A DNA stretch of 62,724 nucleotides, counting the filler, from Hausera hauseri (Eukaryota), in NCBI GenBank assembly GCA_046269625.1. It is 11 parts of 11 records of this genome, joined end to end, with 100 filler letters (N's around TTAATTAATTAA, not from the genome) between each part and the next. Parts side by side here need not be neighbours in the genome. Positions count along the whole stretch, not along the records: positions 27,522 to 31,665 come from JBJURY010736766.1; 10 more parts are not named here. One strand, 5' to 3'. Below, one piece after another: positions 11,552 through 48,028 of the stretch (within the stretch, counting starts at the first letter, position 1; every line of letters starts with the position of its first letter). The position numbers and the translations under genes were made by a program. The notes beneath the pieces were generated by a model. That model was not told where the DNA came from, did not search any database, and saw only the letters and a program-made list of their open reading frames with translations.

Positions 11552-13745
11552 TGGATGCCTACCCTCTACCATTAATCAACGATATCCTTCACAGGCTCCA
11601 TGGTTCAACCATTTTTTCCTGCATTGATTTGCACAAAGCATACTATTAAATTCTGGTGGCCCCAGCAGACATTCCGAAAACGACTGTTATTACATCTTTC
11701 GGCCTCTTCGATTACTTTTTCATGTCTTTTGGACTTCGTAGCGCTTCCCAGACCTTCCAAAGGCATATTGATACAGTCCTATCAGATTTAAGCTTTGCCT
11801 ATCCCTATATTGATGATATCCTAATTGCATCATCTTTCTCGAAGCAGCACTCCAAACATTTACGTTTAATCTTCCAGCGTTTGCACCAAAACAATTTGCA
11901 AATTAATTTCGCCAAATGCTCCTTTTTTCAACATAAGGTCAACTTCCTAGGACACATTATTAGCTCCTCCATACATTTACGTCAACCAGAGCGCATCACA
12001 CAGTTCAAAAACATACAACTACCACGTACATTAACAGAGATGCGTTTTTTCCTCGGAACCTTGCATTTTATTAATAAGTATGTTCCACACAGTTCCACTT
12101 TAACCGTTCCATTTGCATCACTAAGCTCTGACAAGAAGAAACAGCCTATTCAATGGACCGCCAATTTAGTCAATGCTTTTGATCGTCTCAAAGAAAATTT
12201 AAAAACGGTTGAAATCCTGGCCTATCCAGACTCCCATACAGAACTCTTCTTAACCACGGATGCATCTACAACCGCTGCAGGTGCTGTCCTTCATCAAGTC
12301 AAAAATCGATACCATGTGCCATTAGAATTCTTTTCTCAAAAATTCACGGCACAAAAGCAAAGATATTCCATCTTTGACGGAGAGTTGCTTGCAATGGTCC
12401 TTGCCGTAAAACACTTTAAGCATTTGCTAACCGCACGAACCTTCACAATACAAAGGGACCACAAGCCCTTGCTTTAAATTCTCACTATTAAATCGCCTTC
12501 TCCACGTCAGGAGAGGCAAATATCGTATTTGTCCACATTTAATTTTGAAATTGAACACCTAAACGGAGTCGACAATTTAGTAGTTGACTTTTTGTCCCGA
12601 TCGGTCAGCTCAATTGATTTTACACCAATTTTCCCTTAGTCCAAACTTCAACAAAACCAGCCACCTCCTGACATCCTTAAATCTCTTAAATCGTGCAAAA
12701 CCATCGACGGTGTGGCCTTTGACACCTTTAAACCTAATAATCCTAAAGTCATCCTTTCTGAATCGCTTCAAAAAGAAACATTCAACAACATCCATTCGTT
12801 GCATCATTCCGGTGCCAAGGCCACTTTTCGACTCTTACAAAGCCAAGTAGTATGGTCATCGATGCGCTCTGACGTGCAGGCATGGGTTAGGCAGTGTGTG
12901 GCATGCCAAAAATACAAAGTTACTTATTACCTAAAGCCACCACTATATCATTTTCCCTGCACGTCTCGTTTTGAATCTGTTCAAATTGATCTTGTAGGCC
13001 AATTACCCTTATACAACGGCCATCAGTTCATCCTCACAATGGTGGACCGTTCCTCGCGGTAGCCAGTGACTGTCCCGCTTCGGAGCACCAACACAGAAAC
13101 AATCGCAGACGTTTTCATCCGCACTTGGATCAGAAAGTTTGGATCGCCTCGCCATATCATTTCGGACCCAGGTCCACAATTCGAATCCAACCTGCTTAAA
13201 GCTCTTGTCAATCGATTGGGAATTAACCACATTCACACGTTACCACATCATCCCCAATCGAATGGCCTTTTCGAACGCTTTCACCGAACGATGAAAACGT
13301 CTCTCAAAATCCTCGCTGAGTCCAATCTCAGTTGGACTACACTCCTTCAGTACTTTCTGCTTGGCTGACGGAATACACCATCAACTTCTACAGGCTGTTC
13401 ACCTGCAGAAGCATTATTTGGCACTTACATCAGATCATTATTCGAGATGACTGTGCTGGACAATACTCGTACAGACGAAACCATACAAGCGGCACAGTGA
13501 CACTTTGTTGAGATAAGCAATGACTCATTTTGCAGACTGTTACACGCAAATAAACCCTACATACCCGACGATTTATATACTGCTAAGTTCGTTTGTTTAA
13601 AGAATCAGACGCCGTGTGGCTTTCAACCTCAGTATGTCGGCCATTACAAAGTAATTCGCTTACACTCCCACAACATCATCATTCTCAAAGACGACAAAGA
13701 AGTAGCAGTTCACATCAACAACGCTAAACCGGCTTTCTTCATTGA
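11552..13745 (+). mobile_element. Ty3/Gypsy pol (RT, RNase H, integrase), decayed
   Basis: MSFGLRSASQTFQR, YIDD, LTTDAS, HSLHHSG..CVAC, IDLVG, ISDPGPQF, HPQSNGLFER; in-frame stops. Confidence 0.95.
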
Positions 13746-13749
13746 CGAC

Positions 13750-14450
13750 ACGTCTCCCATCGAAACCACTTCTCCACCAACATCTTTACACGACTCGCAG
13801 CAATCCAACAATTCACCTTCCATCTCTACTCAATGTCTTAATCCATTTTCCCTTACGTCTTCTCCCAAAACTTCCCCTTCAATTTCTTCTCACAATTCAG
13901 CCCCTTTCTTCCCTTCCGATTCTGCACCTTCAAGCCTTTTACCACTTTCTTCATCCCTTCACAACAACCTGCTTTCTCCTTTCACAGCACTCCCTCCATC
14001 AAACACCATTTTGACTTTACCAATCTCTCCATCCACACCTTTCATCATTCCAACCTCTTGGCCACGACCCTCCAACTACTTTCCTTTGCTCTCTCCATCT
14101 TCACGCTCTCTTTCGCCTTGTACCTCTCGCCGTCTTTCTCTCTTCCTCATCTTCGGCGCTTTTTTCCTTCCTTTCTCCTCAGACATCATCTTCTACTCCT
14201 TTCACTTCCGCTTTACAACTTCCTCATCTCTTCGCCTTTTTCCCTATCATTTGTCCTCTTTCTACTACTACTTCTGTTTCATCTTCTACTCCCACTCTCT
14301 CATACAATTCAATTCCAACCTCTATCCGCCACTACACCTTTAATCAATCCTTCATCCTCAACAATCTCTCTTCCTCGTTCACCTTCTTCTTTTCTTCCTT
14401 CTTATTCGTCTTCGCACGATACAACACTTACAACAAAATCTGACCATTTT
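13750..14450 (+). repeat. Pyrimidine-rich low-complexity tract in the Gypsy 3' region
   Basis: Strong C/T bias between the integrase end and the PPT. Confidence 0.7.
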
Positions 14451-14657
14451 TCCCAAACCTTAAACTCTGCAAATAAACATACAGCACAAAGACAAAACAC
14501 GCACAGCCACATTCAGCAAGTATAGCAGGAAAAAATCGTTAGAAGGCACACAACTTCTTGTCCACACTAAGACCGACTGACACAGACACTTTTTCGTTTT
14601 GCGGTTCTTTCTCTTTTTACCCTTCATAGCTTTCACTTTGCCACGGAAGCGGGGTGA

Positions 14658-14830
14658 TGTGATGCCCACAGCGGTCGGCGCCCTTTGACCCATTTGGTTG
14701 GACATGGTCGGGCGTCCGCCGCCGCTGCGTCGGGCCCATAGGCGGGCCCCGATCTTCCGCCTCCAAAGACGTTACGTCGAGCTAATCTGAAACATTTGAA
14801 GTTTAACCGTCGAACGTCGAAAATAATACA
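14658..14830 (+). repeat. Probable 3' LTR of the Gypsy element (right end uncertain)
   Basis: Purine-rich GGAAGCGGGGTGA followed by TGTGATG, the same start as the contig-1 LTR; a CA end is available at 14830. Confidence 0.5.
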
Positions 14831-20300: not shown

Positions 20301-21179
20301 TTGGGTTTACGTGTCACACAACTGCATCGCGCAATCCGAATTGCACAGGCTTTGATATTTAAGGCGTATATTAGTCGGAATTTGGAAAAACGAGTTGCAG
20401 CTTGTACGAAGTTTTATAAAGACTATTACAAACTGAAAAACAATTCTCTCTACGGAAAAACAGTAGAGAATCTGAAAAAGCGACTCAATTTACGCATGTG
20501 CAATAGATAAAAGAGGTTGGTCACGTGCACAAGTAAGGCGCAGTTTCGGAGGTCAATGCACACTGCCGATAGATTGGTTGCCGTGCTTTTAAACAGGGAA
20601 AAAGTCGTACTGTACCTGCCAAGTTATATAGGACAAGTGGTATTGGATATGAGCAAGTTGCGGATGTATGAGCTGCACTATCGCCGTTTGGCACGATACC
20701 GGCAAATATTTGGCGGCGGCGGGTGCAGGATTATTATAATTGCAGTTGATACAGACAGTTTTTTCTGGGAATTGGAAAACGTCAATCGCGAACAACTACT
20801 GCAGAAAATGATGGCAGATAGATTACTGGATACGTCCAATTACCCCAGAATCATCCATTGTGCAATAATGCCATCACAAGCAAAATCGGCAGCTTCAAGA
20901 TTGAAAGTTAAGGTCGGGTTCAGTATAGGGAATGGATATTTCTACGGTCAAAATGTTAGTCTTTTAAATGACTGTGGACAGAAAATGCACGCTAAAGAAG
21001 TTCAGTTAATTCTGACGGAAATAAACCATGGTAATTGTCGCTGTATCTATGGAGGAGGAGACGGAGGACAAACAAAGGCTGTTGTGTTTCAAACGATCAT
21101 CCGATCAATCGAGCACCAGCTGTATATTGTGACCAATACAAAAGTCGCTTTGTCATGCAATGATGATAAACGTAAGTAG
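17359..21179 (+). mobile_element. Polinton/adintovirus-type protein-primed family B DNA polymerase, pseudogenised, with N-terminal tandem Cys/His domains
   Basis: GQSFIP..AVVNIKN.NDEYCFLYSIL; endonuclease VII-like C..C..DHNH..G..AAC; FHNFRGYD (ExoII); GIRGG; YIDINNL.GWALSQPLP (motif A); KLKNNSLYGK (B); DTDS (C); many frameshifts. Confidence 0.92.
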
Positions 21180-22685: not shown

Positions 22686-23065
22686 CTTAGAGTCTCACAC
22701 TCCACGAAGAAAACTCAGAGACATAGGAGGACCGTTCTCTGAGCACCCCAGGGGAATGCCCCCGAGTACGTGTGAATTGTACGAATATTGTTTTATTGTG
22801 TACTAACCACCTATTTTTCTCTATTTTTACTGCAGTTTGATTTAGGCCACATCCAACTATTTACCCAGCTAAAAGTGATAAGTATACTCAGCTCAGTGAC
22901 TGTTAAAATTACTTCTTATAATCCCAGATGAAGTAAAGTATATTAACAAAGTGTTATCTTGTGTTTATTTTGTGTTAAAGGTACCGCTTGCCTGGCTGAC
23001 TGGTGAGGAACTGCTGTGTGTACCATTTCATCCATTGTGTGCAGCTCTAGCATAACATTAGCAAA

Positions 23066-25081
23066 ATGTGGTGGCCACCAAAACCTGTGGTGATAGGAGT
23101 TGGTGTTTTATCAACTATCGTGCTATCACTCATTTTCTCTCTTGAATATTTCTGCGTGATCCCAGGTCTAAAGAGTTGCAGGGCCACTGTGGCGAAACGT
23201 AGAGAGAAACGAACTGTGTCCCCATTACAAACGCTGAAAGACTACTATGGCAAGCCCATATTAGACGTACAATATCCCAGAGGCTCCGCCACCACCCTGA
23301 AACTGTCAATTTGCAGCATGTTTGACTGCAAGGACTCACGTATCACGCACGCAAACTTCTACATTTGCCCATGTCCCCACCCAACTGGCTGTCGCTTCTG
23401 TGAGTGGACAGATGTTGTTCTGTACTCAGGTTCATGGGTTCCAACTATGACTGCATATCCTCCAAAATACGTAAGTTGGTGGAAAAACAATGCCACCCTA
23501 ACTAAGGGTGGAAATGATTTGCTCCTCACTCTCAAAAGAGTTGACAAGTGGTTTAAAATGACCTATTTAGGCTCTGGTGACATGGACTTCAATTTTGTTA
23601 CTGATCCTATGTCGGTACTGATAGCTGCGGAAGTCACTAATAGAGATCCCATACGAGTGTTACAACTCTCACTCACTGACGAACTTGAATCAGACACTTC
23701 TACAACAACTACGGCCCCTCCGTCGTCTGCCCCCACGCCTGTAAAAATGCGCATAGACAGCGTCGATTACACCAGTCTGACACCTGTGGAGGTAATTACT
23801 ATGTCTACAGGATACTCAGAGTCTAACATTTGGTTGGAGTGGCTCGCGGAAGCTGCAAGACAGGCTTCTTTATCTGAGTGTGTTGCTTGTGCAGCAGCTC
23901 GACCGACCTTGTATACCCAACCTGCTCCACTAGTTCCACAGGACGAGTGGGGATTTCAGTGTATGTTGAGTTTGACTAGAAAACGACAGAATAAGAACTG
24001 TACCACATTAGATCAATTGTTCCCACTAATCTCCAATAAAACTAAACTAGGTTCATTTACGCCCGCAAAACGACATGATTATTATTGTTTTAACTTCACC
24101 TCCAACAGTACTAACCAGATTGATCTGGGACAAATACAGCCAGACTGGTGCAACATTACACAGCAGAATGGTACCGACAACACCCGAGTGGGTAAGGTTG
24201 CACGTGCTGAATTATATTACTTTTGTGGAGGTAGGCGTCTGCTCACTCACATCCCTCAGGATTCTGTTGGCTTGTGTGCGATGGTACGATTGACTGCTTC
24301 CTTAACATTGATTGGCCCTCGGTTGGAAGTCCTGAATGACACCTCCAACCAACACAGTAGAAAGAGACGCTCGACACACAACTTTGATCCTACTGTTGGT
24401 TCACCAACATACATTGATGCCATCGGAATCCCTCGGGGAGTTCCTGATGAGTATAAATTAGCAGATCAGATTGCAGCAGGCTTTGAGAATATACCTGTTG
24501 TCTCAGCATATTTCCCAATCACCCCCAACAAAAATGTGGACAGGATAAATTACATACATTACAATGTGATGCGTTTATCTAATCTTACCAGGGATGCTGT
24601 GGAAGGCCTAGCTGAACAACTCGCCCCCACTTCACTGATGGCTGTGCAGAACAGAATGGCTCTTGATATGCTGTTAGCAGAGAAAGGAGGTGTGTGTAGC
24701 ATGTTTGGTGACCTTTGTTGTAGTTTCATTCCTAATAACACTGCCCCTGATGGAAAAGTGACCCGTGCACTTGAAGGTTTGAGAACGCTGTCTAATGAGA
24801 TGAAGTCTCATTCAGGGGTAGGTAACTCTTTTGATGATTGGCTCCTCAGTGTGTTTGGCCCCTGGAAGCAAATGATTATATCCATGTTAATGTCAATCGC
24901 AGTATTTGCAGCTATCTTGATCACATGCGGATGCTGCTGCATTCCGTGCTTGAGATCTTTGTCCGTGCGCCTCATCACTTCCACCTTAGAGAAGCGTGAT
25001 CCAGAAATCACCCGTCAACTTCTCATGCGCAAAGGCTATAACTTAGAGGATTTTGAGATGACCCCACGTTGCCGTACATAG
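23066..25081 (+). CDS. env: Intact gamma-type retroviral envelope glycoprotein of a fish-type ERV
   Basis: N-terminal hydrophobic segment, CVAC (CXXC), furin site RKRR, immunosuppressive domain AVQNRMALDMLLAEKGGVC, CX6CC, TM helix, CCCIPC; 671 aa with no stops. Confidence 0.95.
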   Translation: MWWPPKPVVIGVGVLSTIVLSLIFSLEYFCVIPGLKSCRATVAKRREKRTVSPLQTLKDYYGKPILDVQYPRGSATTLKLSICSMFDCKDSRITHANFYICPCPHPTGCRFCEWTDVVLYSGSWVPTMTAYPPKYVSWWKNNATLTKGGNDLLLTLKRVDKWFKMTYLGSGDMDFNFVTDPMSVLIAAEVTNRDPIRVLQLSLTDELESDTSTTTTAPPSSAPTPVKMRIDSVDYTSLTPVEVITMSTGYSESNIWLEWLAEAARQASLSECVACAAARPTLYTQPAPLVPQDEWGFQCMLSLTRKRQNKNCTTLDQLFPLISNKTKLGSFTPAKRHDYYCFNFTSNSTNQIDLGQIQPDWCNITQQNGTDNTRVGKVARAELYYFCGGRRLLTHIPQDSVGLCAMVRLTASLTLIGPRLEVLNDTSNQHSRKRRSTHNFDPTVGSPTYIDAIGIPRGVPDEYKLADQIAAGFENIPVVSAYFPITPNKNVDRINYIHYNVMRLSNLTRDAVEGLAEQLAPTSLMAVQNRMALDMLLAEKGGVCSMFGDLCCSFIPNNTAPDGKVTRALEGLRTLSNEMKSHSGVGNSFDDWLLSVFGPWKQMIISMLMSIAVFAAILITCGCCCIPCLRSLSVRLITSTLEKRDPEITRQLLMRKGYNLEDFEMTPRCRT

Positions 25082-25135
25082 ACTCTAAGATTTACTTATG
25101 GTCGACCTCAGATAGGTGAGGTCGAAAGGGGGAAT

Positions 25136-25614
25136 TATTATACATTTATATTAATTTGACTTTCTGCATGGTTTACATTTCATCTGCTTTTGTGCATGAC
25201 ACGATGAGTCATACATCCTGTTTTGTACAAGTTCGGCCCGACCCAGACTTACAGAACCGGAACTGCACAGAGGAACAGCAGCTCGTGCTCTGTGAGTGTG
25301 TGTGAAATGAGGAACTATCCAGCTTACAGTATAAGAGCCACAGCACTTCCTCTTCAGACAGACGGTGCAGCGAGAGAGGCAGACTTTTGATCATTTTTAC
25401 AGGTTGTATTCTCTTCATCGGATGGGCATTCAATGTTTAGATTGCTAAGATAATAACTGCATTGTACTAATCCACTGTTTTGCTTGTGAACCTGTGACTC
25501 CTTCTTTGAAACTTATTCATTCAGATACGTATTAAATATTCTTAAACTTGATGGTGCGTCTGTCGTATTCTGAGTATGTGTCCTTGACTCCTTTTTACAG
25601 GGAAATGATAAACA
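25136..25614 (+). repeat. ERV LTR following PPT GAAAGGGGGAA (25124-25134)
   Basis: PPT directly after env; TATAA near 25330; ATTAAA at 25531; ends ATAAACA. The 5' TG is mutated to TA, and boundaries are approximate. Confidence 0.6.
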
Positions 25615-25915
25615 CGAGTTCGGGCGGACAATAAAAGTGACCGCTACACTTACTAAATTGGTAAATAAGTGAGTGAGGCGGAATCTGGTGAGATTAAAAG
25701 AACCACAGAAGTTAAATAAAATAATTTACTGGCAACCTCAAATATAATAACAAAAATAAATAAATAAAAAATAAATATAATAAAATAATAATAATTTTTC
25801 ACAAACAAGAGTAATACAACAAAGGGGTCAACGCACATTAGTACAAACTATAGGTTCTCTGGTATAAATAAAACTGTGGTGTCCTGACTCGCGTGAATGT
25901 GTGAGTGAATGAAAG

Positions 25916-27421
25916 TTGGCCTGTCTTATATGTTTGTCTCACTACGTGAGTAGTGAGGCATTGTCCCATCATAAGACCAACTGTATGAAAGGAAAAGAGA
26001 AAATAAAAAGAGTTCCTGAGGTGATATTAATATCAACGAAGGTTCTAGGTGATCTAACTCACCCTTGTGGAACGCTCAGGTCCTCAGAACCTCTCGAGAA
26101 TCTCGGGATTAAGTTGATATCTCACTAGTTCCAGAAACAATAAAGATTTTGAGTGCCCTGACTGTGTGAGTGTGTGTAAAAATATGGGTGACAAAGTTGA
26201 GATGCAAGCAAGACAGGAGGAAGTGAAAAAGCAGAAGTCGGTAAAGAAATTAAAACCCTTTAAAGAGCAAATGAAAATAGTAAAAGAGGCCATTTCCTTA
26301 ACGATAGGGAACAAAAACGACAAAAAATTGTTAAACCAGAAACTAACCAGTGTAGAAGAGCATGAAGAACAGGAGAGCGTTATGGAAACATTGTGGGGTG
26401 AGGTGCGTAGGTGCAAAAAGGAGAAAGAGAAGTTGGAGAGAGAAATCAGTGAAGCAAGTGGATTGTTAGTAAAGAGGAAGCACAAAAATAAACTGGCAGG
26501 CCTAGAAACAGACTATAAAGAATGGTTCAACCTGGCAGTGCTCACACAGGGGTTAGCACATCTCTTATCTGACAATAAATCTTTCTCAGATGAGCAGCAG
26601 GCCCCTCATGACCCACCACCATACTCGTGACCAAACATGTGTCCCATCTATGCTGTGGATTCAGGCATTGTTCAAGTCACTTCTGAACCCAGTCCAGGGT
26701 CCACCCACAGTGGGCCTTACGGGCCCCTGAGCAGAGCATTGAGCTCAATGAACACAGACGAACTAGTCACAGTAGATGCCACAGGTTTTTCCAAACAGGG
26801 CTTAACTGCTTTTTCCACGCCAAACCAAAACATACAATTGACACCCCAACAGCATAGACCCAGGGTGGTCAGTTCAGGCCAGCTTTCGCCTGCTCCACCC
26901 ATATTAACTCCCCAGGCTTATTTAACTCCACCACCTTCTTTGGCCGCCTCCCAGGCCTCATGGGTTCCAGATCCATCAGGACCATTAAAGATATCTTCTA
27001 CACTGTATACAACACCATGCCAGTCCTATGCATTGTCTGACACAAACCCTGAGGAAAATGATGTTACTAACTCAATAGTTTATATAATATTAGCTCATTA
27101 TTTACAACAACTTCCAACTGTTGGGGAATACTCCAAAGTTACAACCCCCAAGATATTATCACATGTCGACTCTGTACACATGACAAGTGCCCAGGGTCTT
27201 TTGATAGCGACAAGTCTTAGATATCAGTCCTACAACAATTCCTACATTCGTGATTGTATCCAGTCCAAACGAAACATTAACAAATGAATCTGCAGATGAG
27301 TAGTATAGAACATGAAAAACAACGCTCGTTTCAGGATGAAAATGGCTCGCGTTAAGAAAAAACCTGGAGCAAGGCTGGCGTAAGGTTGCAGCAGGTAAGG
27401 AGAGATAATACAGGCGCAATC
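25916..27421 (+). pseudogene. Gag-like N-terminal region of an ERV, decayed
   Basis: Lies downstream of the LTR; coiled-coil region, DPPPYS late domain, Pro/Ser-rich linker; stops and frameshifts. Confidence 0.55.
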
Positions 27422-27521: not shown

Positions 27522-28660
27522 TCATCCAGCCCGATGATGTCTCCTTCTTCAATTATCTGGAATTTCATAACCTCGTTCATAAATGCCGCATAGGAGCGTT
27601 GTTCCCACCATAGTAAGTTTTCAGTTTTTCTAAGGATGCTCTATATCCTTCTTCTTAAAGATCGAAATTTTCGACCAGTTTTTTCGGCTCCCCATACAAA
27701 CATTTATTTAACTGTAGTTGTTTGTATATATCCGTCATTGAGGTCTTGTGGATACACGTATCAAATGTCTTCCTCCATTTATCGTATTCTTTAACTATTC
27801 CCCGAACTTCGGTAATTCTAATTTTTGTAACTTTGGTAGAATTACCCTTTCCCTTTTTTCCTCTTCTGATCTTCCTCTGACGGCCATCATTTTATTTTCT
27901 CTTGAGGTTCTTTCATAGATGATCGCGTTAATTTTTTCATTCTGATCATCTAGCTTCTCCATGTCGTTTTCTAGTAACGTGATGTTTTCCTTCTTCTTCA
28001 ACTTTCTTGCCGCGGTAGCTAATACACACAGCTCCCCTTGAAGTACGTTGTAGGCTTTATCGTATTTTTGATGATAAACCTCGTACTCTTGATCGCTCAT
28101 GCTCGCATCCATCAACTTCCTCCGAATCGCTGATAGATCGTTAATAAATTTACGCCGTTCCGACAGTCTCTCTTCTAATTCTTCCGTAGTTAACTCGCTC
28201 CCACCTTTTAACCGCAACTGCAAAAAGAATGGTCGAGCCCTTCTGAATATAGTATTCATCAAGTTTTGGCACTCCTCAAGTTGTTTCCCGTTATAGATTA
28301 ACCGTTGTTGTTTTATCGGAATCCCTTCCTTTTCCTCGACTGCCAACTTCAACTCCTTTACTTTGTCCGACGTCTTCACTAAGACCGCAACTATTTTTCC
28401 CGAAATTGTTTCAAAAAATATCATTGTTTTTTCTTCTTCCAACTTTGTTGTTTCCTCTTACACAATTTCCTTGAGGACGAGTTCCCTTCTTTCGTCCTTT
28501 ACAGATGACACCTCTGGTGGTCGTGACTCACCTCTCTCTGGTTTTTCTCCCTGAATTTGCAGTTCTACAATCTTGAATCCGGAGTCATTTTTAGATTCCT
28601 GAGGTCCATTTGAATTTCCGCGGCAGCTCGTTTCAAAGGAGAACCCTTTTACGATTTCGC
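27522..28660 (-). mobile_element. BEL/Pao retrotransposon gag (DUF1759-like) with an internal ubiquitin-like domain, decayed
   Basis: KLELPKFG..EYDKWRKTFDTCIH..MTDIYK..CLYGEPKKLVENF..Y..SLEKLKTYYGG is typical of BEL gag. Confidence 0.82.
28200..28424 (-). other. Ubiquitin/NEDD8-like domain ending in LRLKGG
   Basis: MIFFETISGK..SDKVKELK..VEEKEGIP.KQQRLIYNGKQLE..LRLKGG; an alternate frame gives DEYYIQKGSTI (compensating frameshifts). Confidence 0.92.
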
Positions 28661-28674
28661 TTCCCCAGTCAAAT

Positions 28675-29112
28675 GCTATTGATTCCGTCAGTTGATGCCT
28701 ATTTTCCAACTGTTTAGAGAGACAGACATGCTTTTTATTCCCTTTTAAATATTTACCGCCTCCAGCGCAAGACACCTCAACTCCTGGTATTAGCATTGCC
28801 TTTGTGGAATTGTCACGATGTTTTAATGTATTCATTTTTCCTTTGATCCTCATCGTGCATATTCCACATAATGATTCCGCCTTCATTATAACATTTAAAC
28901 GGAAAGAACAAAGCCCGAACGCAAGGAGAAAGACATACAGAGCCTCGAAGACAACCGCATAACGTGGATTGCGTCTGCGGATCACGGCCCACGACGGCCG
29001 GTGCCCTTTGGCCCATTTGGTTGGGCGCGGCCGGGTGTCCGCTGTCTCCGTGTTGGATTCGTAGTCGGGCCCGATTTTTCGACTCGAAATTTTACGGTTT
29101 CCCTATGTTACA
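28675..29112 (-). repeat. Probable 5' LTR of the BEL element
   Basis: Starts TGTAAC on the minus strand at 29112; AATAAA near 28735-28740; CA ends available at about 28711 or 28675, just before gag. Confidence 0.5.
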
Positions 29113-29959
29113 GAAAATAAAAGTTGATTATAGATAGCTATCTGATGCACCATATGATCGCGGCGTTATACAACATACAGATAGAATTAACCAATTTTAC
29201 ACGCGAATACAAGTTCTTATATGTTATTCAAGTAATTCCGCATTTGGTCATTAGCCAAGTTGTTCCCATAGCATTACCTTATTTATCCATATCAAAAGTT
29301 GCGATAAATCAAAAGAATGAGGAAAGTGGATGTTATTTGTTGATGAAAGATATTCTTCTCCAAAATCAATTTATCATTTAAAAAAAATTGCATCGCACCA
29401 CCGCGACCTTGCTTTTCAAATTGCAAATTTTCTGAGCAAGAGCTTGGATGATTCCAACAAAAATGCATTTACAACAAGTGTACTTAGTTGTCCAACTTCG
29501 CAACTAATATGAATGATACTCTAAAGAGAACCCTAGTTGCTAAAAGGCAAAAGATTTATCCAAACACTCCATTAAAACTGATTTTTGTAGCAATTGAAGA
29601 AGGTGTTATGAAGACGTACTATGAATTAACATTGAAAAACGGATTGTTAATTATCGGAGTGAGATTTCAGGAAGAAAAGTTCATGAAATATATAACACAA
29701 AACAGTGATCACTTGAAAGAAATCGACATTAATTTACATTTAATATTGAATTACGCGTTCAGTTTCTATCTGACCAAACGAAACTTCGGCCAAGTATATT
29801 TCTCGACGAAATTCCATGAAAAAGAAGGTACACTTACTCATCCAAAACTGATCGATCGAATCATGGTTGATTGTTTGTATCCATCAACTCTGCAATGCCA
29901 GTAAACTCTTACGACATGTGCGAAAACTACCACCAAAAGTGAAAACTTCCATTAATACT

Positions 29960-30780
29960 AAAATATGGCCAAACCAAGACGATATATCAAACCTTATTTA
30001 CTGTTGGCTAGATCAAGTAAAGGAACGAGACAAAATCACGAGACAGCGAGTAGGAAATGAATTCGTAAGGCTCCTCGCAGATGAAAAACTCACAGTCCAA
30101 GATATAGCGTCGGGAATAAATCGCTTTGTTAAAGTTTGGATGATTTGGTCACTGACATTCCGCTTGTTTAGGAAAGTTTTGGCTCAATTTTATCATGTTT
30201 TATCAGATGCTCTTCGGATGTATCACCTTTCAAAAACATTTTTGATGAAACTGTGCCAAAGTCAAATGTTTTAAATCGTATCGTGCTCTCATTGAATTAT
30301 GCTTCAGAAGATTCTATGAATGTTGTGGCAGAATTGATGGACCATTCTGCGTGGTTTCTTACAGATTTCGGACAATTATGATCTATTAAAGTGTTACTTA
30401 AGACTCATAAACTTAAGTCCTCGTTGAAAATTTTGAAAGTTTCAATGAAGAAGAATTAGTACCATATGAAACCATTCAAAATGAACTTATTGATCTTTTA
30501 CCAAAGGATGATGAAAAGATTTAACAGTTATTGATCATTATAAATTATTGGAAAACAAAGATCCCGATTTTATTCGTTTTGTTTTTTTGGCATTCTTTCA
30601 TACATTTGTGACTTATCATCAGATAATATCAAAAGACGCATTTATCCAGTTATACCAGAACCTTCCGATCAAAAATCAGTCGTTATCCGACAACGTATGG
30701 AGTTCTAATCAGAAAATCGTTTTCAATGCTGTTAATACGTTTCTGGATAAACTCTCGGTAGTATACGAGCGGAGACATAT
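29960..30780 (+). pseudogene. eIF4G C-terminal (MA3 and W2) fragments with deletions
   Basis: ERDKITRQRVG..FVRLL..GI..DDLVTDIP (MA3-like); DPDFIR..IISKDAF..AVNTFLDKL (W2-like). Confidence 0.65.
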
Positions 30781-31665
30781 CTTACTTTATTTTAGACGGT
30801 GAATTTTGTTCCTTTTGTTCTGTTGAATGAATACTTAATTTTCATAAAATTATCTTAAAACCGTAATTCAACAATGTACATACTTTTCTAGATTTCTATA
30901 CATGTGTATATATAGATTTTTTGTAGTTGTTTAAACACAATAAAAAATTTGCGTCGGTTTTTGATTTGTCATTCGCCATAGTGGAAAATTTCGTATAGAT
31001 AATTCAAAGTTTTAGCAATATCAATTTGATTTCTCTCAATTCTGAATGCGTAAAACGATTTTTGAAAGTTTAGTCCAGGAAAATACTCAAGTTACTTTAA
31101 AAAAGGGTTAAAAAAGGAAAGATGCAAAAATTGTTCTGTGATGATTTGGCAAAGTTTTGCCGGAATTTTCCGCTGCAGTCGCATACGTGGGATTTATTAA
31201 TCAACGAAGAATATGCCAATAAATGGTGTCAGAAATGTTACTCGCTTATCTGATGGCCCTCGCACGTGGAATTTTTCAACCATATAACGTTGATATTTTT
31301 ATCCATTTCAAATTTTGTAAATTCTGTCCATGATAATAGCGAATATGTGTTCTGTTCTGTTTCGAAAATGGGTATTGATGATCTGTATGTCGATACCAAC
31401 TACTTTCTTGATATAACTGGCAACGAAACCCGCTAACTCTAACCAGATACGCATCTGTCCCCCCCAACCATGTTTACCGATGGCCATTTGCGAATACAAC
31501 AACACACCGTTCTGCTTGGCTGCTGGGCCCGATAGATTTGCCTATCGGGTAGCGGAGAGGCACGTTGGTGCTGGGCCAGTATCACTGGACATGTATGACA
31601 TATCGTGCCCAATCACTGACGGAAGTAGTCACACTGCTATAGCATCTACGGTCCCTATTTCTGAT

Positions 31666-32649: not shown

Positions 32650-35600
32650 ATGTGCAAACTCTACAGAGATTGCATGGCTCAAATCCATGAGCTTGAAAAT
32701 TGCCACAATATTATGAAGAAGTATTTCAGCCATATGTACAACGGGGTTCAGTATTATATATGCCCTACATGTGAAGTAGTGTGCCAAACCAATTATGAAG
32801 ACTTTTACAATGTCCATAAACAGCACTTGATTTCCTTCACAAAGTCGAAAAACAAAAATTCAGTACCAATATGCCAATAATGACTTTCGTGCCAAAGGAA
32901 AATCAAAGATGCAGTTTATATGTGTACTGCACATGTGCAATACACAACCCTCAAAATTGCCACAATGCCATGAGCAGCTATTATTGACACAAGTTTAACA
33001 GGATCATTTATTATATCTGCCCTGGATGTCAGGCTGTATGTGATGGAGAATACATACAGTTTTATAAAGATCACAAACATCCTTTGACTGACTTTGCATC
33101 AAAGTCAAAGAAGATCATCTTTAATGAACATAAGCCAGTTGCACAGCCCGCAGTACCACAGCCTTCAGTACAGCCATATGCAGTATTAAAACGCATATCA
33201 GGCGCATCAGGCGCATCAGGCGTACCGGCTCCATCAAAGAGTCAAAGAAAGCGGCCAGTTGATGCTGCAACATTAAAGACGAAAGTTCCACAAATATATC
33301 ATTGATGCAACTGGTCAAACAACCATGAAGGAGTCCCTGGAGTACACAGACGAAGAAACAGAGGGAATTCTCCAGGATAGCATAGCTGAGCTCAATGCCA
33401 TTAAGACTAATATGAAACTGGAGACCATATAGTCAATGTTGATGGCGAAGAATCCAATAGAGCCTTCAAGACCAGAAATAGACCTATTTTTGAAGCCACG
33501 AATATAGTAGAATGGCTGCATGAAGAGCATGCAAAGCTTATCCGTGAAGCCGATGAGAGTCAGGATAAGAAGGGTGGATAGACTCTGGCAATCATCAAGA
33601 GATTGCCTGTGTATGTTCACGAGTACTCTCCCATGCGGGGCAGTTCTTATATTCAGCTTCCGGAATGGATCGCTAATAAAAAATCATGCATCAATGTCCA
33701 TAATAATGACAACAAGTGTTTCATGTATGCCATTCTATCAAAACTCGTACCAGATCATAAACATGCAGCGAATCGAGTTTGGCTATATAATAATCTGAAG
33801 CACAACTATGACTTCCAATGTACCACATTCCCTCCATCCTTACATGAAATTAAGAAGTTCAGCCGAATCAACAACATATCCATTAACATCATTGGATTAG
33901 ATAATGAGGACAAATTTTATCCCCTGCAGATATATGATACTAAATTGGAAGATCATAAGGATCTGTTCGTACTAGACGATGGAGACAAGAAACATTATGT
34001 TTGGATCAAAAATTTTGAGCGTCTAGTCAGATCCCAAATTACAAATCATCATGGATAAATAAAAATATGTAAACGATGTTTATCTCATTTCATTGGTGAT
34101 ACAGCAGTGAACAAGCTTGCAGAGCACAAAATGTACTGCAACAACAATTACTGTGTAAGACCAGAATTGTCCAAGGGGAACTATATTGAATTCAAGGAGT
34201 TCGAGAAGATCAAGGTCCCAATAGTGATCTGTTGCGACTTTAAGGCTATTCTCAGGCCAATTCACAGCTGCACTCCCAGTGCTCAACATAGCAGCACAAC
34301 GACATACCAATATCATGAACTCTCATCGTATTGCATATATGCCAAAGGACTGGACAGTGAACCATTTTTATTCAGGGGTCCATGTACAGCATCATATTTC
34401 ATGAAACGACTTAAAGACATGGCTCATAGGCTTGGAAACATGCTTCAGAAGCATAAGGATAATATGAGCATGTCGTAGAAACAAGCTGAAGAATGACGCA
34501 AGGCAACAACATATTATGCTCCAAATCATTCACCAAGGATAATCATAAAGTCAAGGATCATTGCTATTTTACAGTAACATATCGGGGCGCAGTATGCAAC
34601 AACTGCAATCTGCGTTGCAAAACATGCATATATGTGCCTGTAGTGTTTCACAATCTCAGTGACTATGATTCCCACTTCATTGTTCAGGAACTGGGCAACA
34701 CTGATAGGAACATTGATGTCATTCCCAATAGTGAGGAAAAATACATCACTTTTACCAAGCATGTCGGCCGCATTAGACTTCGATTATTAGAGAGCTTCCG
34801 CTTTATGAACTCGTCACTGGATAGTTTAGTGAAGAACCTCCCTGCAGAAGACCGGAAGAAGACGAAGCGGTTCTTCCCTACTACCCATCCTTATGACTAC
34901 ATAACTTCATGTGAAACACTGAATGAGACTTCACTGCCGGACAAGAAGGACTTTTACAGTATCCTCTCTCATTGTAATATCAGTGATGCTGACTACCAGC
35001 ATGCTCAGAATGTCTGGCATGCATTCAAATGCCGAACATTAGGGGAATACAACGACATATACCTCAAGACGGACGTTCTGTTGATGACAGATGTCTTTGA
35101 GAGTTACACGGATGTCACAATGAAGAGCCATGCTTTGGATCCGGCTCATTTCTTTACGATTCCAGGGATGAGCTGGACAGCTATGCTGAGATATACCGGC
35201 ATAAGGCTGCAGATCATTAAGAATTACTATATAATCCTTATGATCGAGAGAGGAATTAGAGGCGGAATATGCCAGGCCATTCACCGGTATAGCGAGGTCA
35301 ACAACAAGTATGTGGCCCAGTATGATCCGTCCAAGGAATCCTCATATATATCATACATGGATGTCAACAACTTGTATGGATATGCATTGAGCGCCCAATT
35401 GCCGTATGATGACTTCAAATGGGTCGAGAATCCTGAAACCATCCCTATATTGGACTTGGATCCCACCGGAGATACGGGATATATACTGGAGGTGGATATG
35501 GAATATCCGGCTTTAATCCACGCAAGGCATCAACAGCTGCCTTTCATCCCTGAGTAGGCATCCGCCCCATAGAAAGCAGAGAAAGCTGCTCTGTCAACTG

Positions 35601-39947: not shown

Positions 39948-40346
39948 ATAATTATTACAGCGTAGGATACTGATAAACAGTACTCTGTATTCATATACCT
40001 ATACTTGGCTACGTAATTCTTCAAACTATGAAGCTACATCTGGAAGACATATCCACCATAATGGGAACTTATCATTTAGCATATGTTGTACTTCTGGAGG
40101 TTTCTCTGGCTCAGTGGAATCTGATTGTAGGGGGTTCAAAACCACACAGTATTCCACTCATGATGGACTGGTCATCTGTTGTGAGTTTTAGTAGGGCCAT
40201 CGAAATGTTGGCAGCTCTTGAGAATGCCCTGACGCACCACAAGGTGTATGTGTCAATTTTATTTTTATTTTATCTGATATGTTGTACTTTTAAAGAAAAT
40301 GACAACTATTTTTGACCCTGTACAACTGTCATAATCACATTCTTAC

Positions 40347-40529
40347 CTTGCTGAGACCTGAATTCAGCTTCTCCCATTGTATGAGGCTGCATGAGCTCTC
40401 CTACTGGTGCTGAGATGGTTACAGAGAATGTCTTCTGCTCACTAGCCAACTGGAAAGCAGCAGGCTGAGTTGTATCATTAAAGTTGATCCCCATAAGGAC
40501 TGAAGTGCTGGCCCCAACACCAAGAGTAG
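40347..40529 (-). CDS. Exon of AP-3 complex beta subunit (C-terminal ear region)
   Basis: AG/GT-bounded exon MGINFNDTTQPAAFQL..FSVTISAPVGELMQP.TM.E.EF..QQG resembles AP3B MGIDF.DSTQ.A.FQL..PPVGELL.P..M.E..F.KEQG. Confidence 0.78.
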
Positions 40530-41021
40530 CTGTAAATTAAAATGTATACAGTACATCAGGGCTATTTAACAAACTCAGGGGACCACAGTTACTCAAAGCC
40601 AACATATCATTAGAAGAAAAATACAGTAAAAACTGACTCTGATACAGTAGTTTTATCAGATCCATTTTTTTATTCAGAAAGAGTTCTGTGCTAATTAATC
40701 TTATAATTCTCCGTGTGATCGGCAGCTAATTAAATCACCGATACATCAAAGCTCTTTGAGCCAGTTCCCAGAACCTGGCTCGCCTTTGCAGAGGCCTGAA
40801 CCTTGCAGAGCTGACAAATCTATCCACATTTGAGCTCATTAAATATTATGAACTCAATCTCTCCCTCTCTCCCAGTTCTCTCTTTACATCCCTATCTGTA
40901 TTTGTCTTTCTATCCGCCATCCTACAATATCCTCCCCTTCTTCAAAGCAGATGGAAAATAAAGTTGTATTCTCATCAATTGAACCAGTCTCAGTGGAAAT
41001 AATTTTTTCACTTCAACAATT

Positions 41022-41039
41022 TGGCGTTGTTGGCAGGAT
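41022..41039 (+). promoter_or_regulatory. Primer binding site, tRNA-Ser-like
   Basis: TGGCGTTGTTGGCAGGAT 3 nt after the LTR end CAACA; 2 mismatches to TGGCGTAGTCGGCAGGAT. Confidence 0.8.
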
Positions 41040-41590
41040 CCATCGCTGGTTCGTCCACTCGTTGGAGTCAGACCGGGGCTGATCACCCAAAAACCTGTCA
41101 CGGTATTTCCTCAACCTCCACCAGGCCAGTCTGTGAGTCGAGGACGGCTACTGCTCCATTGAGAGGACCGGCCGTGACTGAATCCGATACCGAAGAGACT
41201 GAGAGAAACAACTAACAAGGTAATTAAACCTTTCTACTAAATTGTAAGTCCTACAAAAAGGACTGAGTGTAAAAGCCCTATATTCGAGAAAAAAATAAAA
41301 ATAAAAAAAAGGGAAGGGCTGAGTTTAAATTGTAGGCCTTTGGCTAAAGGCTGAGTGTAGGTCCATATATTAGAGAAAAATAAATAAGAAGGACTGAGTT
41401 TAAATTGTAGGTTTTCGGCGTAAAACCGAGGGTAGGTCCTGTTGGAACTGAGTTATGACGTCATAATTGAAGTGTAGGTTTCAACATTAAAAAAGGACTG
41501 AGGTGGAGAAAATTTTTATTTCATAAAAATCTTCTCCAGCCCACCATAAAACACCACCATATATTTGGAATAAAATTACTTTGTTCTAAA

Positions 41591-43645
41591 ATGGGTGGTT
41601 ACCTTAGGAAACACGGAGATGACGATTATATACCTTTTGGGCCCATTATAGACCTTATGAGAGAAAAACACGGAGAGACATGCATTTCTTTTTTGCCACA
41701 ATGGCATAATAAATTAGGTTTTCCTAAAAATGGCAGTCTAGACCCGGCTGACATTCAAAATCTGGAGGAAAAACTAATGAGCCAAAAGCAGAAAATGTTA
41801 AAACATAACAAAATATCTCGCGACCAGCTGGTCACTGAGTGCACATGAGGATGCTTTTAGACCCTGCTTTTAGACTGTGGAAAAATATGTCTTTAATTCA
41901 GCAATCCAAGGTCCACACTATGATTCAGATAATAGGGAAAACAGATTCAAAAATACAAGCCTTAAAAGAAAAATTACCTGATGAAACTAATCCGTCTGTT
42001 TTTTCTTTTCCATCCCCCACACCCTCTCATGCTCGAGCCCCATCCAGGCCCTCGGCCCCTCCAGCGGCTCCTAGTCTGTACCCCTCTCTCACGGGACTAA
42101 GGCACGATCCTCCTCCACCCTACGAATCTCCCACCCCATCCAAACCATCTCAGCCAACACCTAAGCCACGAGGAGGGCCACTCAAAATCCTTTGGCAGTG
42201 TGAGGGAGATGATGATTACCAGAACTGTGGGGATACATCTGACCGCCCTCTTGGTCAGGTTCTGGCTGTTCCAGCTCTCCCACAACAGCAACCAGATCCG
42301 CCTGTTAATGAGCAGCCTGCCCCTTCCACCCCAGGGTGATATAGCTGCAGCTTCAGGCTCCACAGTTCACTCAGATCCACCATCTTCCAACCTCAGAAGC
42401 AAAAAGGTAAAAACCCATGAAGAGTATGAAACTGAACTAAAAAACAAAGAAGCAGAACTAATTGCCCTTCAGAAAGAAGTAGCTAAAGTAGAGGCAAAGA
42501 GAAAAAGAAAACAAAAATCCAAACAAGACCAAGAAGAAAGGCTAAAGCAAGAAGAGGCTGTTGCCTGCCAGCTCCTGAAAGACCTTCTTCTGACCAAGAT
42601 CCCACCCCCATCAGACACTGCCCAAACTCCCCAGCTCCCCGTCGACACCCCACCTGAGGACACCCTCAGTTGTCCCATGGTTGAGGTAGGGGGCCCGCAG
42701 GGTGCACAACTAGTCCTCCGCACCTGGACCCGTATCGAACTGGTAGACATGGCGAAATCCTTCCTACCTGTAGTAGAACAGGGGGGCACAGAAATTGCAA
42801 AAGCCCTGGACACAATGTGCCACACCATGCGCCCCAGCACTGATGAACTGAGGGTTATCTTTGGGTCTGTTTACGGGGTGGGGTTCCTGTCAACTTTGGG
42901 CAACGTTTTTGGGGACGACAATCTTGTCCTTAGAAACATTGATCTAACTCACGCCTCAAATGATGCTTACAAAACAGTTCTCACCGCCATTAAAACCGCT
43001 CTAACTGACAAAATAAAAAAATGCCCCAAAATGAATTTAGTCAAAGTCTGTAAATACCAACTTGGTGATGTCCCCGCTGAATACTATGCCAGACTGAAGA
43101 AACTCTTCGACGTCCATGCTGGTCTGACTGAGCCTAGAAATGAATGGCTAACAGATGCTGACCCTGATCCCTATGAAAGTCTCCTAGCCCAATGTTTCAT
43201 GGATGGTCTGCCACCAACTCTTCAAGCTGCTGTAAAACTCACCTACACCGGCTGGGATGACGGCCTTCGCATGAAAAAGCTCCTTAAACACACAAAACAC
43301 GCTGTGGCCACCCAATCCCTCGCCAAAGAAGAAGCTGAAACAAAAAAGAGCTGCCTCCAGGAAGAAGCCCAGCTGACCCTGGTCCAAGCAGCTTCCACTT
43401 TCTATCAAAATGACCAGGGCAGGAGCCAAGGCCAAGATGACGCCTGTTTTATCTGTGGAGCTGATGACCACTGGTCCAGAAACTGTCCTGATCGCCGTCC
43501 CAGTCGCGGCCGAAGAGGCCGAGGGGGACCACCCAGAGGCCGTAGCTACAACAATAACAACCAGGGCTACAGAGGACAAAAGGGAGGATCCTTTCGTGGG
43601 GGTAAGAGGGGAGGTGTGCCCCCTTTTAGAGGTCAATCTTCATGA
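41591..43645 (+). pseudogene. gag: ERV gag, two frameshifts (about 41840 and 42330)
   Basis: MG myristoylation start, PSAP/LYPSL/PPPY late domains, CFICGADDHWSRNC Zn knuckle, RG-rich tail. Confidence 0.9.
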
Positions 43646-46600
43646 CTACAGCCGCTGGACGGACTCCAAGGACTCCAGCCCCTGATGAGTATCGAAATAC
43701 ACCCACCTAACACATGTTACTTACAATATTCATCCTCTGCTCATTTAAAGCTCCCTATGCTAACTGTACAAGTTCAAAACACACCCATTGATTTTCTTGT
43801 AGACTCAGGAGCCACTCAATCTCTCATTAAACATTCTTGTTTACCTGGAGCACCCCTCTGTGGTCGTACAGTCCACTCCACAGGTGCTTCAGGGGAAACT
43901 GTTCCTGAGCCAGTAACTTCACCACTCTCTTTAACAGACCATTTTTAAAGAAAATCAGACCACACCCCCCAGATGAGTGGCAGTTTGTCCAAGATCTCAG
44001 AGCTGTTAATGCTGCTGTACAACCCCGTGCTCCCATTGTCCCCAATCCTTATACTATCTTAACTCAAATACCTTCTTCTAGCACTTGGTTTACAGTTATT
44101 GATCTAGCTAATGCTTTTTTCAGCATCCCTATGCACCCTGACAGCCAGTTCTGGTTTGCTTTCGAGTTTAAAGGCAAGTCTTATACATTCACTCGCCTGT
44201 GTCAGGGATACTGTGAATCTCCTACCATTTTTCACCAGGCTTTGAATGATAACCTTGCTTCTTTTTTCCTGCCTGCAGGATCTGCTCTGCTCCAATATGT
44301 TGATGATCTCCTCCTTGCTGCACCCTCCAAGGATGAGTGCATCACCCAGTTTTTCCGTCTTCTCTCCTTCCTAGCTGAAAATGGTCATAAAGCATCAAAA
44401 TAATAAATAATAATAATAAATAAGCTCCAATTTGTCCAACCAACTGTTACATTTCTGGGTCACGTCATCTCCAAAGAGGGAAGGGCCATAGCTCAACCTC
44501 GTGTTGACGCTATTGTTTCACTGCCTCTTCCCAAAACTAAAAAACAACTTATGTCTTTCCTAGGTCTGTGTGGGTATTGTAGGCATTTCATTCCATGTTA
44601 TGCTGAGTTAGAAACCCCATTAAGAGAAGTATGTCATGACAAGGGGTTACAAATGAGCTCACATGTCAACTGGACTGCAGCTGCCATAAAAGCCTTCGAA
44701 GCGCTCAAAATTCAATTACAAAAAGCACCCACTCTTGGTATTCCAGATCCAACTCGTCCTTTTGTGCAGACGGTGGATGAGAAGTGCGGTTGCATGACTT
44801 CTGTTTTGCTCCAAAAACATGGCGACAGATTGAGACCAGTTGCTTATTTTAGTTCTAAATTGGATCCTGTTGCAGCTGGCCTGCCCCACTGCCTTAGAGC
44901 CGTGGCGGCCGCGGATAAGGCTGTAACAGCATCCCGAGACATTGTGGGTTATTCTGATCTGACCCTCCTCGTTCCCCACGCTGTCACCCTCATCCTCAAC
45001 GAACAGAAAACCGCTCATTTATCTACTGCTCGTTGGTTGAGGTATCATGCTAGCTTATTAGACATGCCTAACATCACCATCCAGCGCTGTAATGTTCTTA
45101 ACCCTGCCTCTTTGCTCCCAACACCTGAGGACGGCCAACCTCATGACTGTGTTGCTGAACTTGACGTCATCTGCTCACCTAGACCTGATCTACAACAACA
45201 TCCCCTTGTCTCTCCAGACTGGGAACTCTTTGTAGATGGCTCCGCCTCTCGTGACCCCCACACTGGCTCCGCCCTGTGTGGCTATGCTGTTGTGACAGCT
45301 TCTGAGGTCATTGAAGCCCACCCCCTGTCCTCTTGTTCCGCCCAAGCCTGTGAACTTATCGCCCTGACTCAGGCCTGCATTTTGTCTTCTGAAAAATCTG
45401 TAAATATTTACACTGACTCTCGTTATGCTTTTGGTGTTGTTCATGATTTTGGTGCCTTATGGAAACACAGACGTTTCCTTCGGTCAGATGGCCCATTTTA
45501 AATCACCTTCTAGTCTGACCTCTTAGAGGCCATTATGCTCCCGTCCCAAATTGCTGTTATAAAATGTTCTGCCCACACATCTTCTATAGATCCTGTTTCT
45601 TTAGGAAATGCATTTGCTGACTCTACAGCTAAATCTGCCGCCCGACTGACCACTGACCTACTCTTACCACTACTACCCTCTGACCCACCTCTCTCATTAT
45701 CTGATTACAGAAGTTCTCCACTCCTGCTGAACGCTCCTCCTGGAAATCCTGTGGCTCCTCCTTCACTGACTCCATCTGGATTGGCCCTAATGGTAATCCA
45801 TAAACAATTTTTTTCCCAGCTTTCGCCGTTTTGACACACGGTCCTGACCATGTGTCAAAGGGAGGAATGCTGAGGGTCATTGATAAACACTGGTTCACCA
45901 TAAATCTTTCAAAAACAGCAAAATCCTTCTGTGACTCCTGCTTAACATGTGCTACACACAACATAAGCAGAGGTCAGAAATTAACAACACAAGGAGCACA
46001 TAAGCCCACCTGTGTTCCTTTCCAACACCTAATGATTGATTTTATAGAAATGACCCCAGTGGAAAATAAAAAGTATTGTCTAGTTATGGTTGACATGCCA
46101 AAGCAGTTGCTAAATGTCTGCTCACAGATGTAATCAGCAGATGGGGTATTCCCCGCCGAATCAGCAGTGACAATGGACCCCACTTTGCAAATCAGATAAT
46201 GACTGAAGTCTCCCAACTACTAGACATTGATCTAGCAAAACACTGTGCCTACCACCCTCAGAGTGGTGGTGCAGTAGAGCGTGAAAATGGAACATTAAAA
46301 CTGAAACTAAACAAAATTTGTTCCCACACAGGTCTCAACTGGGTCCAAGCCCTGCCTATTGCTCTCATGTCCATGAGAATGAGGGAAAGAGCCAAACATA
46401 ACCTTTCACCTTTTGAAATCCTTTTTGCAGGACCGCCCAACCTTGGTCTGGGCCCACCAAAAGACCCTCACAGCTGTCTCACCACATGTGATGACAAAAT
46501 GCTCCAATACTGCATTGAACTAACAAAATCTTTGACTTCTCTCAGGAAAAATGTTCAAGGAGGACAACCTGGACCAGCACAAGAATCGTTGCATTCTATA

Positions 46601-46760
46601 CAGCCTGGAGATTTTGTTATGCTTAAAAATTTCAGGAGAAAGCGGTGGAACAGTCCAAGGTCCCTTCCAGGTCCACCCACACCGCTGTGAAGGTCGCTGA
46701 ATGAGCCACTTGGGTCCACGCCTCCCACTGCAAAAAAGTTCGGGACCAGCCCACCATCAT
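43646..46760 (+). pseudogene. pol: ERV pro-pol (protease, RT, RNase H, integrase), defective
   Basis: FLVDSGA; VQDLRAVN, YVDD; FVDGS, IYTDSRYAF; H..H..C..C, SDNGPHF, HPQSGGAVEREN. Deletion at about 43945; (TAA)n insert at about 44400. Confidence 0.93.
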
Positions 46761-47561: not shown

Positions 47562-48028
47562 TGTGAAATAAAATATGTATTAAATAAGACTCAATGCATT
47601 TACATTAGATTAAGCAGTTTCATTAGTTATTTGTGTCATCAGATGCTGTTGCACACAGTGTAAGTTTGTTTTACAAGGTTGCAGCAAAACATGAGTTTTT
47701 GTAGATAGGCTTAACAAAACGCCCTTGATGGGAGTCTGGGAAGAGGCGACAAAGTTATCCAAGGAGCATAACGAAACAACTGTGGTATTTGATAGAAATT
47801 GTTTCCCAGAGAAACTAAAATGTGCAACGTCCACGCAACCATGAAAGAATGTAGACGCAACCCTGTGTGTCTGTGAAGAACTGTATAAAAGATGTAACTG
47901 TGTACTGCTTACTCAGAGCTCACCCGGACTGCCCGGGTGCGTCTCTCCATCTGCGCAGATGAAAAATAAAAACTTGTTTCTCTTCAATTTTAAACAGTCT
48001 CAGTGGAAATAATTTTTTCACCTCAACA
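47562..48028 (+). repeat. ERV 3' LTR
   Basis: PPT AAAAGGGAGGAA then TG..CA; TATAAAA at 47884, AATAAA at about 47965; the last ~75 nt match 40947-41018. Confidence 0.88.

Follow-up and report, generated by a model that had tools for sequence, protein, structure and literature searches.

Linear fusions in which ubiquitin and its di-glycine (GG) are followed directly by another protein are known from the cellular precursors Ub-eS31, Ub-eL40 and polyubiquitin. These precursors are trimmed by host enzymes, and their ubiquitin is N-terminal, invariant, and itself the product. In pestiviruses, captured ubiquitin is found within the viral polyprotein, directly before a domain that needs an authentic N-terminus, and further host sequence may lie upstream of the insert (available portions of PMC8310069 and PMC13517609). 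The ubiquitin-NS3 fusion of BVDV is cut by hydrolases, as described in the accessible part of PMC8310069. According to the available part of PMC9703124, a Pro after the GG blocks cleavage, and uncut ubiquitin between domains drives degradation. A ubiquitin-fold domain also occurs in an LTR retrotransposon polyprotein, that of the Burro/GYPSM1 giant Gypsy elements of planarians. There, however, the element is a Gypsy, and the domain is SUMO-like (PF11976) and lies after Gag, between MATH and BCL-2; neither a di-glycine nor processing is mentioned in the accessible portion of the source (PMC6431247).

LTR retroelements are assumed to rely on their own protease for Gag maturation, and the ICTV profile of the Belpaoviridae, which are described from metazoans, names the element's own protease as the only processing enzyme (PMC8742986). 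In the part of the Atlas preprint available to us, the belpaovirus Gag opens with a helical matrix, residues 2-137 (10.64898/2026.03.22.711591). The Gag described here lies within the window, by which we mean the whole stretch of Hausera hauseri DNA that was analysed, 62,724 nucleotides of joined records and filler. It belongs to the record at positions 27522-31665 and is on the minus strand, and the element runs off the record end at 27522. Since the Belpaoviridae are described from metazoans, the element's host is taken to be an animal. The features, in window coordinates, are as follows.

28428-28886, minus strand: leader, in the same frame as the ubiquitin domain, with its first ATG at 28886 and one stop at 28460-28458
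28200-28427, minus strand: ubiquitin domain, 76 codons, matching PF00240 (E 1.9e-13) and ubiquitin entries of the PDB
28200-28217, minus strand: LRLKGG, predicted deubiquitinase cut site, with the GG at 28205-28200 and Ser next
28226-28264, minus strand: out-of-register stretch of about 13 codons inside the ubiquitin domain, decay of the window copy
27900-28199, minus strand: helical bundle that shares 62% identity with P0001 and P0002 and probably corresponds to the matrix-like domain with which an ordinary BEL Gag opens
27522-27839, minus strand: N-terminal part of the capsid (DUF1759), interrupted by stops and two frameshifts and truncated where the record ends
28711-28738, minus strand: possible 3' end of a 5' LTR (AATAAA, then CA, then TGG), weak
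28987-29112, plus strand: high-copy, GC-rich repeat that probably derives from the LTR of another, abutting element and lies outside the Gag system

An open reading frame at 28457-27798 on the minus strand encodes the ubiquitin domain with its GG and the Ser after it, then a helical segment of about 100 residues and the first residues of the capsid. The preliminary description of this DNA had recognised a BEL/Pao Gag with an embedded ubiquitin domain that keeps its di-glycine, and this is confirmed. It had also called the ubiquitin-fold sequence full and in frame with the capsid. The domain does run to LRLKGG, but with the stretch at 28264-28226 out of register, and only the first capsid residues are in frame, the remainder lying in two other frames with stops. 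By tblastn, the window capsid matches the related Gags P0001 and P0002 at 51-64% identity in three frames, -2, -1, and -3; DUF1759 is found in these two proteins at E 7e-16 and 6e-17. The PF00240 match of the window frame covers profile positions 1-54 of 72, and over ubiquitin positions 55-68 a neighbouring natural frame matches 5-7 of 14 residues, as against 1-2 of 14 for the frame of the ORF. Counted by hand from the alignment, 31 of 74 residues of the window domain are identical to ubiquitin; given the out-of-register codons, part of this apparent divergence is decay of the copy. The leader, said to be in frame across one stop, was found just so. From its ATG it is open for 142 codons, a length reached in 0 of 20000 shuffles, and searches of Pfam and the PDB gave no match to it. 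Of the BEL/Pao traits of paired LTRs and a tRNA-Arg or tRNA-Gly primer-binding site, the record at 27522-31665 offers only the candidate LTR end, which would place the start codon within the LTR; a second LTR to confirm it is absent from the record.

Two public runs with two organism labels, X1 and X2, contain the stretch, and they contributed 2284 (X1) and 110 (X2) aligned contigs; X1, which may be related to the source of the window, does not count as independent support. The stretch appeared in no RNA run, which has no bearing on its expression. Depth, which is not copy number, is 815-1451 over the ubiquitin region in X1 against 17-118 in the flank, and about 21 against 0-6 in X2. The GG junction is bridged by X2 contig 12 and the leader junction by X2 contigs 13 and 14. 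At the stop codon, the window letters are contradicted by nearly all of the sister depth (872 of 887 in X1, 16.2 of 16.2 in X2), and the sister contigs differ from the window in register near 28226-28264, so that the stop and the register fault are private to the window copy. One contig in each run skips 28142-28273, including the GG; the intervening letters are not known.

A longer-protein search retrieved P0001 and P0002, which are 61-63% identical over the part that follows ubiquitin and have LKGG-S at the same place as the window. When P0002 was compared with 1.84 billion representatives, 1891 matches were obtained, and the analysis covers the best 150 of these 1891. Within those 150, the Pfam ubiquitin profile matches P0006 (E 4e-28), P0007 (4e-22), P0009 (4e-11), and P0021 (1e-25), all of which also have DUF1759, and P0020 carries a C-terminal ubiquitin remnant. 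Counting the window, PF00240 was found in 5 of 12 members and DUF1759 in 11 of 12 aligned members. In seven Gags (P0001, P0002, P0006, P0007, P0009, P0020, and P0021), a domain or remnant ending in L-x-G-G precedes the capsid, and the distance from the end of the GG to the capsid start is 111-120 residues in all seven members long enough to show the site. Four other rows of the group, P0004, P0005, P0019, and P0108, are N-terminally truncated and too short for it.

A tree was built from the capsid columns only, with 148 rows (two were dropped for short coverage; P0003 and P0061 are without a capsid match; the tree is unrooted). The seven ubiquitin Gags and the four truncated rows form one group on it. 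The support for this group is 99 in FastTree and 93/99 in IQ-TREE, where 35 rows were chosen and the bootstrap had not fully settled; a mixture model lowers it to 86, and the end branches are long. The ubiquitin-GG trait requires one change on the tree for 7 rows with it and 14 without. The outside rows number 137, of which 64 have 130 or more residues ahead of the capsid and 37 have 200 or more, and none of the 64 Gags of sufficient length has the ubiquitin-GG layout (best 150 of 1891). A plain GG lies 100-140 residues upstream of the capsid in 4 of the 64, none with the L-x-G-G motif. The ubiquitin profile, run on 75 outside Gags, reached at best 10.7 bits; this hit, in P0033, was rejected as an outside ubiquitin since it falls on a coiled stretch with no GG. 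The MTMEGG of P0032 was likewise set aside, as it is 267 residues upstream. When 7997 candidates were scored with a profile of the region after the GG, P0007 and P0002 were the only matches, and residues 150-430 of P0002, used as query, found only P0002 itself and P0001. A search for the relatives' DNA loci in viral contigs, metagenome contigs, and prokaryote genomes found none. As judged from these sequences, a ubiquitin-GG ahead of Gag is a trait of a deep BEL/Pao group, not a one-off. The notion of a one-off insertion, with sister copies lacking the domain, is refuted by the sister contigs and the seven distant Gags, which carry it. An old capture, as had been suggested, is supported by the depth of the group, with capsids 19-40% identical between main branches, and not by the divergence of the window copy, which is partly its private frameshift.

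The group resembles other BEL/Pao elements in its DUF1759-type capsid, the model of which is closest to the PNMA2 and Copia capsids, and in a downstream protease, seen weakly and in the relatives only (P0001, Asp_protease_2 at E 0.004 and DUF1758 at E 0.098; P0009, DUF1758 at E 0.008); the record in the window ends before this region. It differs in that its Gags are preceded by a leader and a ubiquitin-GG. BEL/Pao elements are also marked by an RT-RNase H-integrase order, and their superfamilies (Pao, Sinbad, BEL, Tas, Suzu, Dan, and Flow) rest on RT phylogeny; no group member with an RT was found; the outside relative P0023 has Peptidase_A17, RVT_1, and integrase. The three Cys-His nucleocapsid knuckles of BEL/Pao are visible in P0009, whereas P0001 and P0153 have CCCH fingers instead, which is, by these motifs, a nucleocapsid swap within the group. 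The CCCH zinc fingers are in tandem, at 400-454 in P0001 and 222-246 in P0153, in the same sub-branch as the window.

The L-x-G-G motif is present in all eight sequences that reach the site, the seven Gags and the window. The residue after the GG is Ser in six, Gly in one, Met in one, and Pro in none. Only 5 of the 59 columns filled in six domains are invariant, namely L43, L50, L73, G75, and G76. At one extreme, the P0006 domain is identical to ubiquitin at 61 of 76 residues (80%, a hand count from the alignment), and P0007 has ubiquitin, its fusions, or its variants in all of its 60 best PDB rows. At the other, the P0002 domain gives no ubiquitin signal with Pfam, hhalign, or HMM; its identity to the window is 18% in the domain, against 62% in the bundle, and both end in LKGG-S. 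The mutual identity of P0006, P0021, and P0007 is 54-67% in the domain and 19-36% in the capsid. For P0006 and P0021 the figures are 67% and 36%, an excess in the domain that fits either strong selection or refreshment from host mRNA. The surface positions 44, 48, 63, 68, 70, 72, and 74 are variable: position 70 is Gln, Thr, Ala, Leu, Leu, and Val, position 44 is Ile, Leu, or Val, and position 72 is Arg, Lys, Asn, or Gly, with Asn72/Tyr74 in P0021 and Gly72 in P0002. The preliminary description had called the domain ubiquitin/NEDD8-like, and over the window copy's intact first 54 residues ubiquitin and NEDD8 tie (45-47 vs 46 bits). NEDD8 has Ala at position 72, a residue seen there in none of the aligned domains. 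As a small control, the PARP-domain protein P0003 has two ubiquitin-like domains, both without a terminal GG.

The leaders are mutually unrelated; that of the window has no similarity to those of other members (best E 0.42), and that of P0021 holds a piece of HSP90 (E 1.1e-11). Host-gene pieces are in frame in 3 of the 11 group proteins, HSP90 at 76-141 of P0021, CFAP58 at 920-993 of P0001, and CCDC149 at 371-529 of P0019, and two of them sit after the protease region in seemingly internally deleted elements. They are either cargo capture or gene-caller joins. A settled reading as gene-caller joins was dropped, as P0021 fills 1575 of 1878 contig bases and P0019 1815 of 2153.

Structural models bear on the domain and on where Gag would begin. 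The P0002 domain, modelled with AlphaFold from an alignment that included ubiquitin rows, is a beta-grasp with a pLDDT of about 80, a partly circular result, and its pLDDT is under 50 when the ubiquitin rows are removed. The model superimposes on ISG15 with a Z of 9.8 and an rmsd of 2.6 over 73 aligned residues. Atlas leads for P0002, at 0.80-0.81 and of lead level only, include three named clusters among 30 matches that are ubiquitin or SUMO-like. Foldseek gave no match at E <= 0.001 in pdb or viral, and its second-ranked hit, BAG1 (a ubiquitin-like domain plus a bundle), was rejected as the donor given an rmsd of 18 and the presence of the bundle in ubiquitin-less Gags. The P0002 model places LKGG in a loop of low confidence that connects two folded domains, and the segment after the GG, which the preliminary description had taken for a coiled coil, is instead a predicted three-helix bundle (pLDDT about 90). 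Of 75 outside Gags, 10 gave a match to the bundle profile, and in 8 of these 10 the bundle begins no more than 25 residues from the predicted N-terminus, the Gag starts being those of the gene caller. Because the bundle is near the N-terminus in these 8 Gags, and the Atlas Gag likewise opens with a helical matrix, we regard the leader and ubiquitin as an add-on to a complete Gag; the predicted cut after the GG would restore the usual Gag start.

We propose, by analogy with the pestivirus ubiquitin inserts, that host deubiquitinases cut after the GG, separating a normal Gag from its variable leader, a reading to which we assign a probability of about 0.7. Translation would run from an upstream start through the leader, and a host ubiquitin C-terminal hydrolase would cut after the GG. 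The freed Gag would begin with Ser, Gly, or Met, which are stabilising N-terminal residues, and would assemble as usual. The leader-ubiquitin piece would be mostly a by-product, leaving the leader free to vary or to pick up host-gene scraps. Since uncut internal ubiquitin triggers degradation, the GG would stay under selection once captured. In favour of the proposal we count the fixed spacing of the GG, the invariance of Leu73 and both glycines, the absence of Pro after the GG, the unrelated leaders, and the loss of the GG in P0003. Several observations fit it less well. Among them are the contigs, one in each run, that skip the GG, the missing sequence signal of the P0002 domain, the small number of outside Gags (10 of 75) with a bundle match, and the lower group support under the mixture model. 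Positions 72 and 74 are read by many deubiquitinases, and their variability in P0021 and P0002 counts against cutting by the host; also, the conservation of the whole domain in P0006, P0021, and P0007 seems more than a bare cut site would need. Processing by host deubiquitinases had been put forward in the preliminary description as one possibility, with the release of a ubiquitin decoy as the other: the former is favoured by an invariant L-x-G-G at a fixed place, and the latter appears less likely, the binding and conjugation surfaces being variable. The ubiquitin of the group, unlike that of the cellular precursors, is internal and divergent. In the accessible pestivirus reports, cleavage is shown, whereas for the BEL/Pao group it is predicted; moreover, the pestivirus inserts are recent, near-identical to host mRNA, and independent in single isolates (available text of PMC13517609), in contrast to a BEL/Pao trait that is fixed in a deep group and widely diverged. 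It is tempting to go further and suppose that host deubiquitination is an obligatory first step of Gag maturation and that the front of Gag is a free cargo slot, from which any leader, captured host-gene pieces included, would be released ending in a free-GG ubiquitin that is conjugable in some branches; this larger proposal is tentative, and we think it more apt to be wrong than right.

If cutting occurs, the released piece could itself be the point, with the leader-ubiquitin and its free GG being conjugated to host or element proteins or serving as a decoy for ubiquitin readers. P0006 retains 61 of 76 ubiquitin residues, including Arg42, Lys48, Arg72, and Arg74, and the domain is better conserved than the capsid among P0006, P0007, and P0021, as such a role would have it. 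Yet the hydrophobic patch is eroded (positions 70 and 44), Lys48 and Lys63 vary, positions 72/74 are altered in P0021 and P0002, the leaders have nothing in common, and the P0002 domain is barely ubiquitin-like, all of which makes this role unlikely. We consider it quite unlikely that the domain, like uncleaved ubiquitin-like domains, remains part of Gag to help in folding, spacing, or binding, with the GG kept as a flexible linker, although the GG is in a predicted loop, positions 72/74 vary, and the Burro elements have an internal SUMO-like domain for which the accessible part of PMC6431247 claims no processing. A linker would not fix Leu73 and both glycines at one position over such depth; a GG at 100-140 residues before the capsid is rare in the outside Gags and there lacks the motif, and the domains of P0003, which are of the uncleaved type, have no GG.

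The layout might also be an artefact, a chance insertion in the window copy or false joins made by gene callers in the database proteins. The window copy is indeed decayed, host-gene pieces are present in three group proteins, and the relatives are known here from protein sequences alone. However, the window fusion lies in continuous DNA, both junctions are bridged by sister contigs from two runs with two organism labels, seven proteins from two sources keep the spacing to the capsid constant to within 10 residues, and the trait needs a single change on a tree built without it. This explanation is very improbable and in our view already largely refuted.

As far as the accessible sources show, a ubiquitin-capped BEL/Pao Gag has apparently not been described: the literature search gave no report of ubiquitin in a Gag of this superfamily, and annotations may exist in Repbase, Dfam, or GyDB. 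The word ubiquitin is absent from the accessible main text of PMC3118150, PMC8321522, PMC12440569, and the Atlas preprint (10.64898/2026.03.22.711591), as well as from that of PMC6338049 by term search, and none was noticed in PMC8742986. The protein motifs are absent from nine supplementary files of PMC3118150, a weak negative given that the sequences may be DNA and that one large file lay outside the search. If the proposal is right, a lineage that has kept a host deubiquitinase site over deep time would depend on its host in a new way, one that may offer a point of control, and the group would be a stable natural counterpart to the pestivirus inserts, which are short-lived. With the cut motif fixed while the domain ranges from 80% ubiquitin to barely recognisable, the series may also indicate how little ubiquitin a processing signal needs.

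Other elements are present in the window. The GC-rich repeat of about 135 nt is common to 28987-29112 and 14654-14793, in two records, with an X1 depth of 23,000; the former copy is 75% identical over 104 nt to 14664-14767 and has no Rfam match. In both runs there are a depth peak and loose contig ends at 28987. An open frame from 29102 was rejected as wholly coding, since its first third crosses the repeat and sister contigs leave at 28987. In the flank, broken plus-strand frames at 29488-30802, with no Pfam match below E 0.05, are covered by several X1 variant contigs and possibly belong to another repeat family. A decayed Gypsy-type pol (RT, RNase H, and integrase zinc finger) with a long Ser/Pro-rich tail occupies 11650-14340; downstream of it the repeat at 14654-14793 follows a purine run and looks like a short LTR. 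Broken frames at 33582-35557 and 20511-21176 resemble, by eye, what we take to be Polinton-type protein-primed DNA polymerases. Retrovirus-like env or gag-pol frames, unrelated to the ubiquitin-Gag, are found in separate records at 23051-27287 and 39948-48794.
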